Under the pieces are notes generated by a model. That model searched no databases, had not been told where the DNA came from, and saw only the letters and a program-made list of their open reading frames with translations. Position numbers and translations under genes: made by a program. This document shows positions 1-62,214 of a stretch of DNA of 64,000 nucleotides, piece by piece. Source of the stretch: Candidatus Geothermincolia bacterium (GTDB taxonomy: Bacteria; Actinomycetota; Geothermincolia; Fen-727; Anoxymicrobiaceae); assembly GCA_038326775.1 (NCBI GenBank), contig JBBQKJ010000007.1:16826-80825 (forward strand), written 5' to 3'. The first letter of the stretch is position 1. The number at the start of each line of letters is the position of its first letter.

Positions 1-963
1 CCGTCTCGTAAGCCCCAAGTATAAGCTCCCGGCCCCCGAACGCGCACACCAGCATCAGCAGGGTGGAGCGCGGAAAGTGGAAGTTGGTGATAAGCGCGTC
101 CACCACTTTGAAACTGTAGCCGGGGGTTATGAAAAGGGTGGTGCTCCCGGTTCGAGGCTCGAGGGTGCCGTCGGAAAACGCCGCCGACTCAAGCGCCCTC
201 ACCGCGGTCGTCCCCACCGCGACGACCCGGCCGCCACGCGACCTCGTCTCGTTGACGGCGCGCGCGCAGGCCTCCCCCACCGCGAACGACTCCGAGTGGA
301 TGCGGTGGTCCTCGACATCATCCTCCCTCACGGGGACGAACGTGTCCATGCCGACCGCCAGCTCCAGGCCGGTCACTCGGATTCCCGCCTTCTCGAGCTT
401 CGCGAGCAGGCGCCCGGTGAAGTGAAGGCCAGCCGTCGGGGCGGCGGCGGAGCTCTCCCTCTCGGAATAGACGGTCTGGTAGCGCTCGGGGTCGTCTATC
501 TCCCCGGTGATGTAAGGCGGCAGCGGCACGCGGCCTAGCGCGAAGACCGACTCGTCGGGCGACGGCTTGCCCGCGCTCTCGAACCACACCTCCGCCCGGC
601 CTTCGACAGGCCCCTCGATGACCTCGGCGGTGATGCCGCTTCCGGCGAAGGAGAGTTCGACGCCGGGCCGCAGGGAGGCGCCCCTGCTCATAGTGTTCCA
701 GGTCCCCCGGCCGGTCTTCTCCAGCAGCAGCAGCTCCACCGCCCCGCCGGTCGGCTCCTTGCGCGCGTTCAACCTCCCCGGGAAAACCCTGGTTGTGTTG
801 ACCACCAGCAGGTCGCCCTGCCGGAGGAGCCCGGGAAGGTCCCTGAAGGTATGATGAGTCACGCCCCCAGAGCTGCGCTCCACGAGCATCAGGCGGCTCG
901 CGTCTCGCTCGGGGAGGGGCTGCTGGGCGATAAGCTCGCGGGGTAACGGATAGTCAAACAGGT
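1..963 (-). CDS. queA: S-adenosylmethionine:tRNA ribosyltransferase-isomerase QueA (3' end runs off the window edge)
   Basis: The minus-strand translation from the ATG at 961-963 reads MKTDLFDYPLPRELIAQQPLPERDASRLMLV..., the classic QueA N-terminus. The ORF stays open to position 1. The maximal-ORF track missed it because the stop lies outside the window. Confidence 0.85.
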
Positions 964-51765: not shown

Positions 51766-52839
51766 CTATTTGCGCGCGCCTTCGCCAATCTGCTCGAGCA
51801 TCAGGTCGAGGTCGACACCCTCCCTGATGAAACCCCTTATCTTCTCTATCTTAGCGGGGCTGTGGACTTTCTGGTGCCCGATGGCGGCCTCCACCATCTC
51901 AACGGCGGTGGCGGTGTCGTAATCGACCAGGATCACAGGCACTCCTATCTCCTCCGCCTGTCCCAGCACCAGAGGGCTCGGCTGGTGCCCGCCCGTCAGC
52001 ACGAGCGCCCTGGTGGGCGTCTCGAGCGCCGCGAGCTGTATGTCGGCTCGGTCGCCGCCTGTGATTACCACCTTGTTTGCCTGCTTGCGGAACAGCCGCA
52101 GCGCCTGCTCCTGGCCCATCGCCCCCACCATCATGGACTCGATGAGCTCCTCGCCCCTGTCTCTCGCGCAGATCATCCGCCCGTTCAGGCCGCGCGCCAG
52201 TTCATCTACGGTTATAGACCTGAGCACGTGGTCGGTCGGTATCGAGCCAAAGAGCCTGACCCCCTGGGACGTCATGAACCTCGCAAGAAGGCCGCGGGTG
52301 AACTCGAGCCGCCGCTCCGGCACCCAGTTGAGCACCACGCCAAGGAAGCCCTTGCCGAAGAAGTCCCTCCCGGAGAGCAACCTGTCCACCGTAAGCTCTT
52401 CGTTGAACGTGTCGAGAAGCAGCACTCCCGCGTCGAGCAGTTCGGCCACCTCGAACGACGACAGCCCCAGGAGCCGCCCGTGCACGAAGTTCTGTGCGCC
52501 CTCGATGAGCATGATGTCTTTCCCCTCGACGAGCCTCTCGTATGCCGCCTTGACCTTTGCCCGGGGGTTGCCAGGCTTCTTGCGCATGTAGCGAGTCATG
52601 TTGTCCCAGGTCAGGAAGTAAGGCGAAATGTCCTTGAGGTTATCCTCGAGGCCCAGGGCCTCGCTGAGGAAGTAGGCGTCCTCGTCCACCCTGTCGGCGC
52701 CGACTTTTATGGGGTAGGCACCCACGGGCTTCATGTAGCCGACCTTATAGCCACGGTCGCGCAGCTCGAGCGCAAGTCCCACCACGAGGCTGCTCTTTCC
52801 GGAGTACCTTTCGGACGAGATCACAAGTATGGCCGGCAA
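51766..52839 (-). CDS. CobQ/CobB/MinD-like P-loop + DRTGG domain protein (phosphotransacetylase N-terminal-like)
   Basis: N-terminal P-loop SSERYSGKSS. C-terminal DRTGG-type motif VVITGGDRADIQL. Adjacent to, and probably co-transcribed with, the ADP-forming acyl-CoA synthetase. Confidence 0.62.
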   Translation of the reverse strand: MPAILVISSERYSGKSSLVVGLALELRDRGYKVGYMKPVGAYPIKVGADRVDEDAYFLSEALGLEDNLKDISPYFLTWDNMTRYMRKKPGNPRAKVKAAYERLVEGKDIMLIEGAQNFVHGRLLGLSSFEVAELLDAGVLLLDTFNEELTVDRLLSGRDFFGKGFLGVVLNWVPERRLEFTRGLLARFMTSQGVRLFGSIPTDHVLRSITVDELARGLNGRMICARDRGEELIESMMVGAMGQEQALRLFRKQANKVVITGGDRADIQLAALETPTRALVLTGGHQPSPLVLGQAEEIGVPVILVDYDTATAVEMVEAAIGHQKVHSPAKIEKIRGFIREGVDLDLMLEQIGEGARK

Positions 52840-52840
52840 G

Positions 52841-54979
52841 CTATACTACACCCCCAAGTGTCATTCTGACATCCACGCAGGCGCAGCCACCGCCCGCATT
52901 GTAGACCATGAGTGGATTGATGTCCATTTCGCTCAAATCATGGTTATCCTGGGCCAAACGCGAGATCCTCAGCAGAACGTTCTCGACCGCGTCAATGTCC
53001 ACCGGTTCTTCGCCGCGAACACCTTCGAGCAGCTGGTAGGCCTTGAGTTCGCGAAGCATCCGGGCCGCGTCCCAGTCGCTGATCGGCGCCAGCCGGAACG
53101 CCACGTCCTTGAACGCCTCCACGTAGATACCTCCGAGACCGACCATGATGAGCGGACCAAACTGCGGGTCCCTGGCCATCCCCAGGATAAGCTCCTTGCC
53201 CTGCGGCACCATCTTCTGGACGCTGACTCCATCTATATGTGCCCCCGGCACCTGCCTGTGCGCCCGGTCCATCATGTCCTCACAGGCGTCCTCCAGCTCG
53301 TCCGGCCCCTTGATGTCCAGGACGACCCCGCCGACGTCCGTCTTGTGAAGGATCTGCGGCGAGACTATCTTGAGGACCACCGGGTATCCCATCTCGCCCG
53401 CAAGCGCGCGGGCCTCCTCCGCGTCGACGGCCACCCGCAGCGCCGCGTATGGGACGCCGTAAGCGTCGAGCACTTCGCGGCACTCCTCCGGGTCTAGCTG
53501 GGTCTCTCCCCTCTTCCTGACCCCGCTGAAGATATCCGCCACCCGGGTGAGGTCCACCTCTAAGTCGGGGGCCTTCGAGAAAACCCTCTTTGTCTGGAGG
53601 TGCCGCTCGTGCATCCTGCCAAGAACCAGCATCGCCTGGTCGGGGTACGGGATGTTCGGTATGCCGGCCTTCTGGAGCCTGCTTACCGGCGCGTCAACGG
53701 AGCCCGCCCCCATGAACGAGCACATGATGGTCTTGTCGCAGCTACGGGCAAGGCGGATTATCTCGTCGGCTGTCCGATAGATCTCGGTCATCGCCTGGGG
53801 GGTCAGTATTACCAGGACCGCGTCGACCTCGTGGTCATCCAGCAAGGTCTCAACCGCAATGGCGTATAACATGGAGTCGGCGTCGCCCAGCAGGTCCACG
53901 GGGTTGTGGAGGCTGCCGGCGGTCGGCATGTACTTTCGCAGGTTCTCGAGGCTCCGGCCTGTTATCTCGGCCAGGGTCATCCCGGCCTTCTCGCAGGCGT
54001 CAGAGGCGATAATGCCCGGCCCTCCGGCGTTCGTCACTATGGCCACCCGCCGGCCCCGCGGGACCTTCTGGGTCGCCAGGGAGCGTGAAAGCTGAACAAG
54101 CTCCTCGACCGAGCGCGCGCGCAGCGCCGGGGCCTGCCCGCAGACGGCCTCGTATGCGGCTTCGCTGCCGGCCAGGGCGCCGGTGTGCGACGAGGCGGCC
54201 TGGGCGCCCGCCTGCGTCGTGCCGGCCTTGAACAGCACCACCGGCTTCTTCCCGCTTGCGGCCCGCAGTGAATCGAAGAAGCGCTCGCCGTCGGAGACAC
54301 CTTCGACATACATCGATATGACCGTTGTCTCGTCGTCGCAGGCCAGCGCATCCAAAAAATCGCTTTCCACGAGGTCGGCGCTGTTGCCCAGGCTCACCAT
54401 CTTCGAGAAGCCTACGCTCTCGGAGCGCGCCCAGTCGATAAGAGAGGTGCAGATGGCCCCGGACTGGCTGATCACCCCGATCGAGCCTTTCGGCGGCATC
54501 TTGCGAGCGAAAGAGGCGTTCATGGGAAGAGATGTGTTCATGATGCCCAGGCAGTTCGGGCCGAGCAGCCTCATGCCGCCCCCGCTGGCTATCTCGACCA
54601 CCTCGCGCTCCATCTCCCTGCCCTTGATGCCCACCTCCCTGAAACCCGCCGATATCACCACCGCTGCCCTGGTGCCCTTCTCGACCAGTGCCGATATGGC
54701 GCCCGGCACCACGTGGGCGGGAACGACCACCAGGGCAAGGTCCGGGGTGCCGGTTATGGAGGCGATGTCCGGGAAGCACGGGATGTCCTGTACGATATCA
54801 GCATGCGGGTTCACCGGGAATATCCTGCCTTCATAGCCGGACTTGATGAGGTTCGCGAGGATCGAGTAGCCTACTTTATCCGGATGTGCTGACGCCCCAA
54901 TCACGGCGAGCGACCGGGGCTCAAAGAAACCACTCGTTATTACTGATTTGTCAACCGACCTCGAAGATCTGGCGGCCAT
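52841..54979 (-). CDS. Acetate/acyl--CoA ligase (ADP-forming), fused alpha-beta (CoA-binding + ATP-grasp)
   Basis: N-terminal CoA-binding SLAVIGAS...; succinyl-CoA-synthetase-like domains; C-terminal ATP-grasp. About 713 aa. The start (ATG at 54977-54979 or GTG at 54989-54991) overlaps the 3' end of rpmF. Confidence 0.78.
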
Positions 54980-55127
54980 TATAGTAGCCACACTCTCTGC
55001 AGACGCGGTGAGGGAGTTTCGGCTGGTGGCACTGCGGGCACTCGCTCACCGTAGGAACGGCAAGCTTGTCGTGCGACCTGCGCGAGTCTCTGTTCGATTT
55101 TGAAGTTCTCCGCTTGGGAACGGCCAT
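54951..55127 (-). CDS. rpmF: 50S ribosomal protein L32
   Basis: Not in the ORF track, which lists ORFs of 60 aa or more. The minus-strand translation reads [58 protein letters not shown], a canonical L32 with a zinc ribbon. yceD lies upstream. Confidence 0.85.
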
Positions 55128-55229: not shown

Positions 55230-55769
55230 TTACTGGCCGCGCGCCTCGAGGCGGTTCTTCAGCTCCTCGAGCGGTTTGAGCCTGGTGTCCACGCGCCTGG
55301 TGTCGCAGCCGCAAGGCTCAAGGTTGAGGTTGGCCCCGCAGAGAGCGCAAAGGCCTCGGCAATCATCGCCGCAAACGCGCCTGGCCGGGAACGCCAGGCA
55401 AACGGCATCCCTCAAAATGGACTCCAGGTCGAGCATGCCGTCGCTTACCATGTATTCGGTGGCGGGCTCGTTGTCTTCCTCGAGATCGGCCTCGCTCAAC
55501 CAGAGGGCGTGTTCGCGGACTTTCAGAGAGAGCGGGAACTCGAAGCCCTCCAGGCAGCGGTAGCAGAGGAGTGTGGTCACGCCAGTTATCAAGCCGTTCA
55601 CCTCGACACCGCCCGCTATGCGCCTGATGTCGAAGCTCCATGCGACCTCGTCGCCTGGAACGAATATCACGTCGTAGCCATCCTCAAGCACAAGCCGGGC
55701 ATAGCCTGTTTCCGTCCTGCGGTCACCGACGGACGGCAGGGCGGCCGCAACGTCTATCTTCAATCCCAT
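55230..55769 (-). CDS. yceD: YceD/DUF177 family protein (large-subunit rRNA accumulation protein)
   Basis: C-terminal CRGLCALCGANLNLEPCGC motif. Conserved position upstream of rpmF. The start is uncertain: MGLKIDV chosen, maximal ORF to 55889. Confidence 0.72.
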   Translation of the reverse strand: MGLKIDVAAALPSVGDRRTETGYARLVLEDGYDVIFVPGDEVAWSFDIRRIAGGVEVNGLITGVTTLLCYRCLEGFEFPLSLKVREHALWLSEADLEEDNEPATEYMVSDGMLDLESILRDAVCLAFPARRVCGDDCRGLCALCGANLNLEPCGCDTRRVDTRLKPLEELKNRLEARGQ

Positions 55770-55916
55770 CGCCCTGGATTCATCTCTCATCGTTAACACC
55801 CCAGGACAGGTTCTCTCTCGGGGAGTGCGTTCCTGCGTCAACATAACCCCGGGGACGACCGGGGCCACGCGGACGGCGGCTCGACTCAAGAAAACAGGTC
55901 AGACCCCTTGTAAAAG

Positions 55917-56432
55917 CTACTCTTCGGTCTCGCGGTCGTACTCGTCGTCCTCCTCGAGAGGAGCCTCGTCGTAGCCGCGCAACTTTTCGCGCCATGAGCT
56001 TATGCGGTTCAGGATCTCGTCGGTGGAATCCTTCACCTCGATGAGGGACGCCTCGAGCTCACCGAAGATACGGTCGGCAACATCCTCGGCGTCGTATACT
56101 ATCTTGCGCGCCTCGTCCTGGGCTTCGTCAATCATGTGGTCGCGCTCGAGTTCCGCCTGCTTTATTATCTCGGTCTGCTTGACCATGTCGTCAGCTTGCT
56201 TCTCCGCGCGTTCGAGGAGCTCCTCCTCCTTGCGCTGGGCCTCTGACATGATGCGGTCGCGGTCTTTGGATACGATCCGGGCCTGCTTGAGCTCGTTGGG
56301 CAGGGTGGCGCGGATGTCGTCGAGAAGGTCGTAGAAATCCGCCTCTTTCAACATGACCGATGAGGAAAGCGGCACCCGCTTGGAGTTCGCGATGAAGTCC
56401 TCAAGCTTGTCTAGACGAGCGAATATGTCCAT
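55917..56432 (-). CDS. Coiled-coil acidic protein (ATP synthase b/DivIVA-like helical protein), function unknown
   Basis: Entirely helical and charged (EEELLERAEKQADDMVKQTEIIKQAELERD...) with an acidic C-terminus. A similar small coiled-coil gene precedes yceD in Actinobacteria. Confidence 0.42.
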   Translation of the reverse strand: MDIFARLDKLEDFIANSKRVPLSSSVMLKEADFYDLLDDIRATLPNELKQARIVSKDRDRIMSEAQRKEEELLERAEKQADDMVKQTEIIKQAELERDHMIDEAQDEARKIVYDAEDVADRIFGELEASLIEVKDSTDEILNRISSWREKLRGYDEAPLEEDDEYDRETEE

Positions 56433-56438
56433 CTGTGG

Positions 56439-57527
56439 CTACTCCTTTCCGGATGCCCCGGCAGCTTTCCCCTTGCCAAACTTCTCCTCCAGCCGCCTTT
56501 CCACCGCCTTGGGGACCAGTCCCTTGATGTTGCCGCCGTAGGATACCACCTCTTTTATCCCGCTCGAACTGAGGTATGTGTACTCCGGGCTCGCCATCAC
56601 GAAGAACGTCTCGATGCTCTCGTCCATCTGCCGGTTGAACTGCGCCATCTGGAACTCGAACTCGAAGTCCGACATCGCCCGCAGTCCTTTGACGATACAG
56701 CAGCAGTTGTGCTGCTGCGCGACATCGATAAGCAGGCAATCGAAGGTGATCACCTCTATGTTGCCCTTGCCCGCCAGGCACTCCCTCAGCATGCCCAGCC
56801 TGTCTTCGATGCCGAACATAGGCGACTTTTCGGGGTTTACCGCCACGGCCACGATGAGCTTCTCGAAGTGCCGCGCGGTCCTGAGTATGACGTCAAGGTG
56901 GCCGTTCGTCACCGGGTCGAAAGTCCCCGGGCACAAAGCTATCTTCAAGCGGTTGACCTCCTGGTGCCGTCTGCTTCTTATACTCGAGCTGTAGATGGAG
57001 ACTATCGAATCGCCGTAATCGCGCCGCTCCTCAAGTGACCACGCCTCTTTCGGGGGCTCGTAACGGTCGTGCGTCGAGTGCCGATATACGAGGACGCCGC
57101 TTTCTTCAAGAAGCCCCCTCTCGCTGATAAGCCCAAACAACCCCTCCAGCAAGCGTTTATCAATTCTAAAGGGGGGATCGACAAAAATCAAACCGTAGGG
57201 GCCTCTCGCGGCGGAGAGGCCGCGGGGCAGTTTCAAAGCGCGAACGCTTCCTGTTTCTGAGAGGTGAGCACGCTCGAGGTTGGCCTTGATAGCGTCGGCG
57301 GTGGCGCGGTGCTGCTCGAAAAAATCTGCGTGCGACGCTCCGCGGCTCAGCGCCTCGATGCCAAGGTTGCCAACCCCGGCGAACAGGTCGAGCACGCGGG
57401 TTCCCTCAACACCGTCACCCAGCGCCGCGAAGAGCGACTCCTTGATCCGGTCAAGGACAGGCCTGACGCGGCGGTCCTTCGCTCCGTAGAGACGTGTGCC
57501 TTTTGCCGTGCCCGCGATAACTCTCAC
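56439..57527 (-). CDS. rsmD-coaD: In-frame fusion ORF: 16S rRNA (guanine966-N2)-methyltransferase RsmD (N-terminal) + phosphopantetheine adenylyltransferase CoaD (C-terminal)
   Basis: Residues 1-190 carry the RsmD motifs (VLDLFAGVGNLGIEALSRGA, DPPF). Residues about 200-362 form CoaD (KIALCPGTFDPVTNGHLDVI..., ...SSSGIKEV...). No stop separates them in this frame. An internal GGAGG sits 8 nt upstream of a TTG that gives MKIALCPGTFDP. Confidence 0.78.
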   Translation of the reverse strand: MRVIAGTAKGTRLYGAKDRRVRPVLDRIKESLFAALGDGVEGTRVLDLFAGVGNLGIEALSRGASHADFFEQHRATADAIKANLERAHLSETGSVRALKLPRGLSAARGPYGLIFVDPPFRIDKRLLEGLFGLISERGLLEESGVLVYRHSTHDRYEPPKEAWSLEERRDYGDSIVSIYSSSIRSRRHQEVNRLKIALCPGTFDPVTNGHLDVILRTARHFEKLIVAVAVNPEKSPMFGIEDRLGMLRECLAGKGNIEVITFDCLLIDVAQQHNCCCIVKGLRAMSDFEFEFQMAQFNRQMDESIETFFVMASPEYTYLSSSGIKEVVSYGGNIKGLVPKAVERRLEEKFGKGKAAGASGKE

Positions 57528-59787: not shown

Positions 59788-62214
59788 ATGACATCAGTTT
59801 CCAGACCCCGGGCCCTCACGGGATGGTTCAAGTCGAAGATAACCGGCGCGGTCGTGAGCAAGCTGGTCAGGAAGTTCGGCATCCCCAAAAGCGCGGTGCG
59901 CAACCTGCGTTCGTGGGGCAAACTCTCCCAGGAGGGCGGGGGCGGCTTTCCCACCGAGCTGTTGCCTCTTGGGGCCAACATGTGGTCCGGGTTCGTCCTG
60001 ACCACCTTCGCCAGGCAGCTCATGGGTGGGTGGGTGCTTCCATACTGGCTGCGGCGGCAGGGCTCACCGGCGTCACCCGCGTTCGTGCCCCACGGTCACG
60101 CCTGGCTGACCCAGAACCTTACCGGGCGCAACTGGACAGGCATAGGCATCTGCGGCTTCCCTAACGAGGCTATCGTGGACCCAAGGGGCCTCGTCACGCC
60201 GTGGCCGTTCGCGCCCTCGATCGACGTCTGGATGAAGGTCGGCGATGAGCTCCATTGCCCTTCAGAGCGAGACGAAGTCGAGCAGGCGCTCCTCGAAGGC
60301 TTTCCCATCGTGCGGACCTCCTTCGAGGCCGGCGGACTGGAGTGCGCCCTCATCACCTTCGTCGCGCCGTTGGATGGGATGCCGGTGGTGCTCGGCACCG
60401 CCGAGGTGACAGGCGCGCCCCGAGGGGCGCTGCCCGTTTCGCTGGTCGTATCCGTGCGCCCGTACAACCCGGAGACGATCTGCGCCGTGAACGAGCTGGC
60501 TTACGACCCTGTCTCGCATACTTTCACCGCCGATGGAGGCACACTGCTCTATCTCCCCGCGAAGCCGGACGAGGTCATATTCTCCGACCTGGCCCACGGC
60601 GACGTGGCGATGCTCCTGAGCGACCCCGGGCGCAAGAGGCTGCCGGGGGGCTCACTTGAAGTGCAAGAGCCGACCGGGCTCGCCAGCGCGGCCGCCGTCT
60701 ACACCGTGGACCTCTCCGGAGGTGGGAGCGAATCCGTCTGCTTCGCATGCCCGCTATCGGCGGGCGTGCATCCCGACTTTCTGAGTATGCTTCCTGAGCG
60801 CGGGTCCCTCGCGATAGCAGAGAAAAAGCTTGCCGGGCAGCTTGAGAGCTGGTCGGAGGTCGCCTCCCTCGGGATGCGCGTGAGCGTGCCCGATGAAGCG
60901 CTCCAGCAGGCGTTCGACGCCAACAAGGCGTTCCTGCTGCTCCTCTTCGACGGGCAAGCCATAACGCCGGGGCCGTCCACCTATCACATGATGTGGTTCC
61001 GCGATGCGGCATACCTCGTGCCCGCTCTCACCCGCATAGGTCACGCCCAGAAGGCGCGCGACGTTCTTTCCACCTATCCGGACCGCCAGGCCGAGGATGG
61101 GTTCTTCCGCTCGCACGACGCGGAGTGGGACTCCAACGGTCAGGCGATATGGACGCTCGTTGACCATTATCTTATGACCGGAGACGAAGAGTTCCTGCGC
61201 GGGGTATATCCATCCATCATCAAGGGAGCGCGCTGGATAGATGATAAGAGGCAGGCAGGCCTGCCGGCGGGCGACCCGCGGCGAGGCCTCCTTCCGGCCG
61301 GCGTAAGCGCGGAGCACTTCGGCGCAAACGACGTCTACTACTGGGACGACCTATGGGCGGTGGCGGGCCTGAGGGCGGCCGCGGGCGCCGCGCGCGACCT
61401 CGGCCTCGAATCGGATGCGCGGTTCATGGACAGGGTGGCGCGTGAGTTATGGGCCAGCCTCGAGGCGTCGTGGCGCTGGGTCGAGGGCAGGCTGGGGCGC
61501 CGCGTGATACCGAGCGCGCCGGGGCGCGACATCGACGCTGGGAGCATCGGCTCGGTCGCCGCGGTGCACCCTCTCGGCCTGATCGGGGCGGGCGAGGAGA
61601 TCATGCTCAATACCGTGGACACGATCGTCGAGAGGTGCTTCTACCGCGATATGCATTTCCACGCCATCATGCACCAGGGGCTGAACGCCTACATGTCGCT
61701 CGAGGTCGCGCAGTGCTACCTGCGCCGGCGAGACCCCTACGCGCTCAAGATATTCGACTCGCTCTGGTCGATGGCAAGCCCGACGTTCACTTATCCTGAA
61801 GCAATAAACCCGGTCAGCGGCGGAGGCGCGTACGGCGACGGGCACCACGGCTGGGCGGTGGCGGAGTTCATCAACTTCACGCGCAACCTGCTGCTGTTCG
61901 AGGAGGGCGACAGGCTTGTGCTGCTGCCGGTCGCACGATTGGAATGGCTCGAGCCCGGCAAGCGCATCGAGGTCGAGGGGGCGCCGACGTTGTTCGGGGA
62001 GTTCTCCTACACGGTCGATTGCGAAGCTGATGCGATAACCTTCGACCTGCGGGGCGACCTGGCGCGGCCGCCCTCCGCCATCGAGCTGAACGTCCCCTTC
62101 GCCATCACATCGTGCGAGGTCGACGGCGAGACGGTCGAGGTCGGGGAAGGAGCCATGTCCGTTGACATCCGGCCCTCGGCGGGGAAAGTGCGCCTCTTTA
62201 TCATGCGCGGGTGA
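59788..62214 (+). CDS. Large glycoside-hydrolase-like protein, six-hairpin (alpha/alpha)6 barrel type (glucoamylase/trehalase GH15-like), N-terminal beta-sandwich
   Basis: 808 aa. The central and C-terminal region has (alpha/alpha)6-barrel-like blocks (MMWFRDAAY, YYWDDLWAV, GGAYGDGHHGWAVAEF). The family assignment is tentative. Confidence 0.55.
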   Translation: MTSVSRPRALTGWFKSKITGAVVSKLVRKFGIPKSAVRNLRSWGKLSQEGGGGFPTELLPLGANMWSGFVLTTFARQLMGGWVLPYWLRRQGSPASPAFVPHGHAWLTQNLTGRNWTGIGICGFPNEAIVDPRGLVTPWPFAPSIDVWMKVGDELHCPSERDEVEQALLEGFPIVRTSFEAGGLECALITFVAPLDGMPVVLGTAEVTGAPRGALPVSLVVSVRPYNPETICAVNELAYDPVSHTFTADGGTLLYLPAKPDEVIFSDLAHGDVAMLLSDPGRKRLPGGSLEVQEPTGLASAAAVYTVDLSGGGSESVCFACPLSAGVHPDFLSMLPERGSLAIAEKKLAGQLESWSEVASLGMRVSVPDEALQQAFDANKAFLLLLFDGQAITPGPSTYHMMWFRDAAYLVPALTRIGHAQKARDVLSTYPDRQAEDGFFRSHDAEWDSNGQAIWTLVDHYLMTGDEEFLRGVYPSIIKGARWIDDKRQAGLPAGDPRRGLLPAGVSAEHFGANDVYYWDDLWAVAGLRAAAGAARDLGLESDARFMDRVARELWASLEASWRWVEGRLGRRVIPSAPGRDIDAGSIGSVAAVHPLGLIGAGEEIMLNTVDTIVERCFYRDMHFHAIMHQGLNAYMSLEVAQCYLRRRDPYALKIFDSLWSMASPTFTYPEAINPVSGGGAYGDGHHGWAVAEFINFTRNLLLFEEGDRLVLLPVARLEWLEPGKRIEVEGAPTLFGEFSYTVDCEADAITFDLRGDLARPPSAIELNVPFAITSCEVDGETVEVGEGAMSVDIRPSAGKVRLFIMRG

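Follow-up and report, generated by a model that had tools for sequence, protein, structure and literature searches.

The rsmD and coaD genes of the 64-kb stretch of DNA analysed here (the whole of which is called the window below) are read as a single gene, and our results indicate that this is, with good confidence, a genuine inherited fusion of two adjacent genes, brought about by a change of reading frame in the tail of rsmD and with the former start of coaD retained inside the joined frame. The open reading frame (ORF) occupies 56439..57527 on the minus strand and comprises 362 codons in the ORF listing, from a GTG start at 57527 to a TAG stop at 56439..56441. Pfam and NCBIfam matches place both domains on this one ORF with no stop codon between them, as the preliminary description had claimed for exactly this interval, and the arrangement was reproduced in independent data (below). 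The RsmD domain (16S rRNA m2G966 methyltransferase; residues 1-179, based on PF03602 and TIGR00095) lies at 56991..57527 (-) and the CoaD domain (phosphopantetheine adenylyltransferase; residues 195-362, based on TIGR01510) at 56442..56945 (-). Between them, at 56949..56990 (-), residues 180-193 form a linker that corresponds to the variable RsmD tail, based on a comparison of the junction with that of eight relatives; the 13-residue linker reported earlier, SIRSRRHQEVNRL, is present as residues 182-194.

The same 362-aa protein is encoded in three independent Logan assemblies (L001-L003; SRR17021131, SRR17021127 and SRR17021129), which differ from the window at 3-7 positions (99.69-99.94% identity), and these SNP differences mean that they are not copies of one assembly. 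Two additional members of the same 90% cluster, P0121 and P0122, which originate from other samples (one Logan, one JGI), are 94% identical to the window and carry the window linker with one substitution each (SSSIKSRRHQEVNRLKIAL and SSSIISRRHQEVNRLKIAL). At larger distances, the clusters P0002-P0007 (65-71% identity) are continuous fusions of 360-372 aa in all six cases. Further, the order recG, fusion, 170-171-aa coiled-coil protein and yceD was found in nine of nine fused loci for which the genomic context was available (i.e., the window, L001-L003, P0002, P0003, P0005, L007 and L008), with the junctions of P0002, P0003 and P0005 being compared at the protein level.

Each half of the protein can be assigned to its family over its full length. 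The RsmD half looks like a member of the 16S rRNA (guanine966-N2)-methyltransferase family and is predicted to be functional: PF03602 (RsmD family) matched residues 1-179 with 128.6 bits (cutoff 24), covering profile positions 1-181 of 182, and the TIGR00095 RsmD equivalog matched residues 2-179 with 122.2 bits, a narrow margin over its cutoff of 117.5. We checked this half for the SAM-binding motif I pattern (D-x-F-A-G-x-G-x-x-G) and for the second motif, (D/N)PP(F/Y), and both are intact, as VLDLFAGVGNLG at residues 45-56 and as DPPF at residues 117-120, respectively, with D47, G51, G53, G56, D117 and P119 being invariant across 111 fused homologues. Stand-alone RsmD proteins of known structure (3p9n, Rv2966c, and 2fpo, YhhF) are matched over the whole domain (76.9 bits over residues 2-177 for 3p9n), and the alignment of the relatives' stand-alone RsmD proteins to the window spans the whole domain as well. 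Against the nearest relative, L004, identity is 77% for the RsmD half and 81% for the CoaD half.

The CoaD half, similarly, looks from its motifs and profile matches like a pantetheine-phosphate adenylyltransferase (PPAT) family member that is predicted to be functional. PF01467 (cytidylyltransferase-like) matched residues 198-326 of the window ORF with 84.6 bits, and the TIGR01510 CoaD equivalog scored 181.8 bits against a cutoff of 103.3, with residues 196-350 covering profile positions 1-155 of 155. The window protein carries CPGTFDPVTNGH (residues 199-210), KGLRA (280-284) and SSS (320-322); the (T/H)xGH motif of CoaD is present as TNGH at residues 207-210, K234, R283 and S320-S322 are also there, and G209, H210, R283 and S321 are invariant across the 111 homologues. 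Stand-alone PPAT/CoaD proteins (1o6b, 1od6 and 1b6t) are matched over the whole domain; for 1o6b the match extends over residues 195-354 with 158.9 bits (E = 2.3e-45).

In terms of structure, CoaD is a homohexamer in solved structures. Solved PPATs are all 155-187 aa and solved RsmDs all 177-202 aa long, whereas the window carries both on one chain, and a PDB sequence search returned no chain with both RsmD and CoaD domains. Crystal structures are on record for tagged PPAT constructs that carry about 20 additional residues at the N-terminus (3nba, 8zn2 and 9iyg), and that such extended constructs crystallise with multiple chains indicates that N-terminal extensions are tolerated, to about 20 residues only. 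An AF2 monomer model built from the 111-homologue alignment had a mean pLDDT of 92.8, with both domains above 90, a pTM of 0.69 and a mean pLDDT of 66 in the linker block 181-190, and this is consistent with two domains that fold independently and have no set orientation towards each other.

The junction itself holds a potential start site for coaD. The minus strand of the window reads ...cacc AGGAGG tcaaccgc TTG aag ata gct ttg tgc ccg..., corresponding to ...Y S S S I R S R R H Q E V N R L K I A L C P G T F D P... in the protein. The Shine-Dalgarno (SD)-like hexamer AGGAGG (56957..56962, minus strand) can thus be read directly 8 nt upstream of an in-frame TTG at codon 194 (56946..56948, minus strand), in agreement with the earlier report of an SD at this distance, and a start at this TTG would yield a free CoaD of 169 aa. 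The TTG is followed by A, and the resulting TTGA (56945..56948) contains an out-of-frame TGA at 56945..56947 (-) that overlaps the TTG and is bypassed in the window. The motif by itself proves little: in-frame internal sites of the form GGAGG-(4-9 nt)-ATG/GTG/TTG occur 13 times in 13,722 codons of the window (~1/1000) in a crude set of 50 long ORFs at 63% GC, and an argument for its significance from frequency alone was dropped on account of these 13 similar sites. What is informative is placement and homology, i.e., the site falls exactly at the N-terminal boundary of CoaD and is homologous to the coaD start in relatives.

The junction DNA of the window and eight relatives (L004-L009, L089 and L090) reveals this homology. 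In nine of nine sequences, a TTG lies four codons ahead of CPGTFDP and has an A directly after it, and a purine-rich SD-like stretch precedes it by 3-9 nt in all nine, fused or not (AGGAGG, GGAGGAG, GGAGGA, GGGAGG twice, GAAGGAGAG, GAAGAGGGA, GGGGAG and AAAGGGAAG). In L005 and L090 the gene caller starts coaD at this very TTG and rsmD ends at the overlapping TGA; L009 has an in-frame TGA eight codons ahead of the TTG, leaving the TTG as the only usable start after that TGA; and in L004 an ATGA overlap is found two codons upstream of the TTG, with a TGA 2 nt before the TTG. L050 likewise shows an ATGA overlap at its own coaD start. NTGA stop/start overlaps of this kind are typical of translationally coupled genes. 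The window pair is not of the NTGA-coupled type, given that its rsmD is read in the coaD frame and the TGA is out of frame. Based on these comparisons, the internal SD and TTG represent the ancestral coaD start.

What differs among relatives is the length of the RsmD tail, which varies between 33 and 42 nt when the spacer is counted from the last Tyr/Phe codon conserved in RsmD up to the TTG. Spacers of 33, 36, 36 and 42 nt (L007, L089, L008 and the window, respectively) are in frame and the genes are fused; the spacer of 39 nt in L009 is in frame too but a stop separates the genes; spacers of 35, 41 and 41 nt (L090, L004 and L005) go with a stop/start overlap; and with the 40 nt of L006, rsmD extends over the first 56 nt of coaD, in a frame other than that of coaD. 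That is, tail length modulo 3 determines whether a fusion, a 4-nt stop/start overlap or a long overlap results. The 56-nt overlap of L006 may be genuine, or it may stem from an indel error at a homopolymer in the L006 assembly; an A7 homopolymer (GGCCGAAAAAAAGGG) is located in its rsmD tail at 700..780. The window and L004 have unalignable tails of 17 and 16 nt, respectively, before the shared ...CAGACGGCACC..., and this one-base difference points to a frame change that bypassed the overlapping stop, as opposed to a substitution of the stop codon. Accordingly, the earlier proposal that the rsmD stop had been lost is borne out as far as a real fusion is concerned, but the route was a tail frame change past the TGA, with no substitution in a stop codon.

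These results can be combined into the following model. In the ancestral state of the clade, a group of uncultured Actinomycetota-like bacteria, the TGA of rsmD would have overlapped the TTG or ATG start of coaD (NTGA), and the last 11-14 codons of rsmD would have formed a poorly conserved tail of varying length. A one-base change in the length of this tail would have brought rsmD into the coaD frame, the overlapping TGA would no longer be read, and translation would run on into coaD. The product would be a bifunctional 362-aa polypeptide of ~40 kDa with two intact domains and a short flexible linker, and the AGGAGG-N8-TTG that survives inside the linker would allow free 169-aa CoaD to be made also, by internal initiation. 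We consider it probable that free CoaD is produced from the internal SD and TTG, and we infer from the intact domains that the fused polypeptide would be stable and active in both functions.

Codon usage at the internal start may be suggestive of selection. The junction TTG is kept in four of four fused ORFs with DNA available (the window, L007, L008 and L089), and TTG makes up only 4-17% of the Leu codons in these ORFs. There are two other all-TTG columns among the 26 all-Leu columns of the four ORFs, which match this pattern, and hence the case for selection on the internal TTG may be suggestive but is not decisive. The two columns, 126 and 139, fall in the GLIFVDPPF and RLLEGL regions, respectively, and represent an unexplained synonymous conservation.

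The fused state is also labile. In a neighbour-joining tree of the concatenated RsmD and CoaD cores (200 bootstraps), the fused window, P0121 and P0122 group with the unfused L004 and L005 (99% bootstrap), and the fused P0008 pairs with the unfused L050 (100% bootstrap, 83% identity). The unfused L090 is 81% identical to the fused P0002/P0003 and is placed among them in a weakly supported region, the P0002-P0007/L090/L006 group having internal nodes of 25-50% bootstrap. The two pairs with good support, together with pairwise identities, are the main basis for counting switches; read in this way, the interleaving of fused and unfused genes implies at least three state changes within this small set. 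Such lability among relatives argues against strong selection for or against fusion, and we infer that the fusion is selectively near-neutral and did not create a new function. The preliminary description had regarded a stop codon in close relatives as a sign of an error in the assembly; such stops are indeed seen (L004, L005, L090 and L009), but the fusion stands and it is the state that switches. The separate rsmD-coaD pairs (L004, L005, L090 and L050) have the same gene order as the window, recG-rsmD-coaD-(DivIVA-like)-yceD, and share the TTG, the SD and the TTGA with it, the difference being that the window rsmD is off by one base in frame. The ylbH-ylbI neighbourhood of B. subtilis is of this separate type.

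Looking more broadly, RsmD-CoaD fusion is a recurrent minority architecture across phyla that is already in public databases. The best 120 matches in a 5.8-billion-protein collection were mostly proteins of 333-394 aa with PF03602 and PF01467, and the fused proteins among these 120 came from Armatimonadota, Myxococcota, Binatia, Kryptonia and others, and contigs of 1-5 Mb carry some of them. In a 50%-identity library, full-length fusions accounted for about 31 of the best 150 representatives (19,890 total matches at E <= 1e-10, ordinary CoaD and RsmD proteins included). Among reference loci (GTDB species representatives) with adjacent rsmD and coaD, one of 77 outside the window clade was fused (L054, from a betaproteobacterial MAG); the nearest reference-genome locus, on which the taxonomic placement is based, is L009, from an 'Actinomycetota bacterium' MAG, at 60% identity. 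Adjacent but separate genes are the usual state, as initially assumed, but fusion is widespread and less unusual than that assumption held.

The database fusions UCH33359.1 (Armatimonadota), MFO0649910.1 (Polyangiales) and MBI4517670.1 (Deltaproteobacteria) have the same order as the window, with RsmD N-terminal and CoaD C-terminal, and database fusions resemble it in length (333-394 aa) and in having a short variable linker of ~10-30 residues. Their identity to the window protein is only 37-47%, however, and in contrast to the window, which has kept a strong SD and TTG, many of them are without an in-frame start at the junction. They arose independently of the window fusion, since unfused relatives lie between. 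Their NCBI names are only 'pantetheine-phosphate adenylyltransferase', and one JGI record (P0090) names both functions. Full-text literature searches returned no description of an RsmD-CoaD fusion, only of the rsmD-coaD neighbourhood, which was noted to be conserved in PMC6411480. The window is, in summary, one more independent case of an existing, largely unremarked architecture, with each half being an ordinary member of its family. Two clusters, P0012 (378 aa, 29 member sequences) and P0016 (408 aa), had a CoaD Pfam match only and no RsmD Pfam match; P0012 was the top representative match (289 bits, two stretches), with its best stretch at residues 189-351, i.e., in the C-terminal half. They could be either RsmD-CoaD fusions that have diverged or proteins in which CoaD is joined to another partner.

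Several observations were also made on the surroundings of the fusion. A charged coiled-coil protein of 171 aa (55917..56432, minus strand) begins 6 nt past the fusion stop, its SD (GGAAAGGAG) sits within the CoaD C-terminal tail, and it showed a sub-threshold DivIVA match (26.7 bits vs. a cutoff of 28); the coiled-coil protein between coaD and yceD is 169-171 aa long in all relatives. The yceD ORF (55230..55889, minus strand) is 219 aa long from its first TTG, and the true start is uncertain, as the YceD domain begins only at residue 97 and a 186-aa protein is called in the near-identical L001. At 51766..54991 (-) lie a 716-aa ADP-forming acetyl-CoA synthetase-type protein (CoA_binding, Succ_CoA_lig and ATP-grasp_5) and then a 357-aa AAA_26 and DRTGG protein; the CoA-using enzymes of this interval are few genes away from coaD, and relatives have the same neighbour. 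Divergently upstream of recG, an 808-aa ORF (59788..62214, plus strand) had no Pfam match at E <= 0.001, and an ORF of 807-809 aa with no Pfam match on record is found at the same position in L001, L002, L007 and the P0002 contig; this ORF would seem to encode a large and conserved protein of unknown family. The GC content is 61-67% throughout the window, and scans of the whole 64 kb revealed neither a tRNA gene (ARAGORN) nor an Rfam family at the gathering threshold.

Alternatively, the fusion might be adaptive and obligate. Under this hypothesis, which we consider unlikely, only the 40-kDa protein is made and the internal SD-TTG is a silent relic. The fusion would then be kept in order to fix a 1:1 ratio or to tie ribosome maturation physically to CoA synthesis, for instance with six RsmD domains displayed on a CoaD hexamer. 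The persistence of the fusion across 94%-identity strains and the 65-71% clusters would fit an obligate fusion, and so would the conservation of rsmD and coaD as neighbours in many phyla (PMC6411480). Expression of the fusion only also appears workable. A Met near the junction is retained in about a third of the fused homologues, and the Myxococcota-type 'AVYAGSFDPPT' group and many other long-established fused lineages have no Met at the junction, from which it follows that the architecture works without an internal start; these large lineages, which belong to other phyla, lend the hypothesis some support. Fused and unfused genes alternate among close relatives, however, and a strong AGGAGG at ideal spacing is still present in the window. 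In addition, the literature searched yielded nothing that functionally connects m2G966 methylation with CoA synthesis, and the AF2 model shows no confident interdomain packing (pTM 0.69, linker pLDDT about 66).

It is tempting to speculate, although we regard this as rather improbable, that the rsmD tail serves as an evolutionary frame switch between coupled genes and a dual-output ORF that gives the 40-kDa fusion together with free CoaD. If true, mixed CoaD hexamers with RsmD domains could provide a physical connection between 30S maturation and the supply of CoA. Neither the literature searched nor the AF2 model gave any indication that RsmD and CoaD are functionally linked.

It is considerably more doubtful that the RsmD half is decaying, i.e., that a frameshift hit a dispensable gene and that the ORF now serves as coaD through its internal start. 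RsmD is non-essential in E. coli (PMC6411480) and the TIGR00095 score is barely above the cutoff, as might be expected under this hypothesis. On the other hand, the residues of the SAM-binding and DPPF motifs are intact and invariant, the RsmD half is conserved to the same degree as in unfused relatives (77%, vs. 81% for CoaD, against L004), alignments with the relatives' stand-alone RsmD proteins cover the entire domain, AF2 confidence exceeds 90 across it, and the frame change falls after the last conserved RsmD residue.

Finally, an assembly or sequencing indel, with the genes being truly separate with a TTGA overlap and a spurious tail base faking the fusion (the second option of the preliminary description, which placed an error at the former stop), is highly improbable: in L004 and L005, the nearest relatives with DNA (77-81% identity), the genes are separate and the stop falls in the -1 frame, and a single-base length difference suffices to explain the window fusion, but the same frame is seen in three assemblies of different runs with SNPs elsewhere, two 94%-identical variants from other samples share the linker, the window tail has no homopolymer run, and the six more distant clusters are fused too, so that the independent assemblies and strain variants rule this reading out. 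Programmed frameshifting was dropped as well, the ORF being continuous and needing none.

We thus favor the hypothesis that adjacent rsmD and coaD genes became fused through a frame change in the rsmD tail, with the start of coaD retained within. For annotation, this means that the window ORF should be named bifunctional RsmD/CoaD, and be neither 'corrected' as a frameshift nor labelled CoaD alone. For the evolution of the gene pair, the window and its relatives represent a clean, small case in which genes whose stop and start codons overlap fuse and re-split via single-base changes in the length of an unconstrained tail, and such tail frame changes help explain why this 'Rosetta-stone' pair recurs across phyla.
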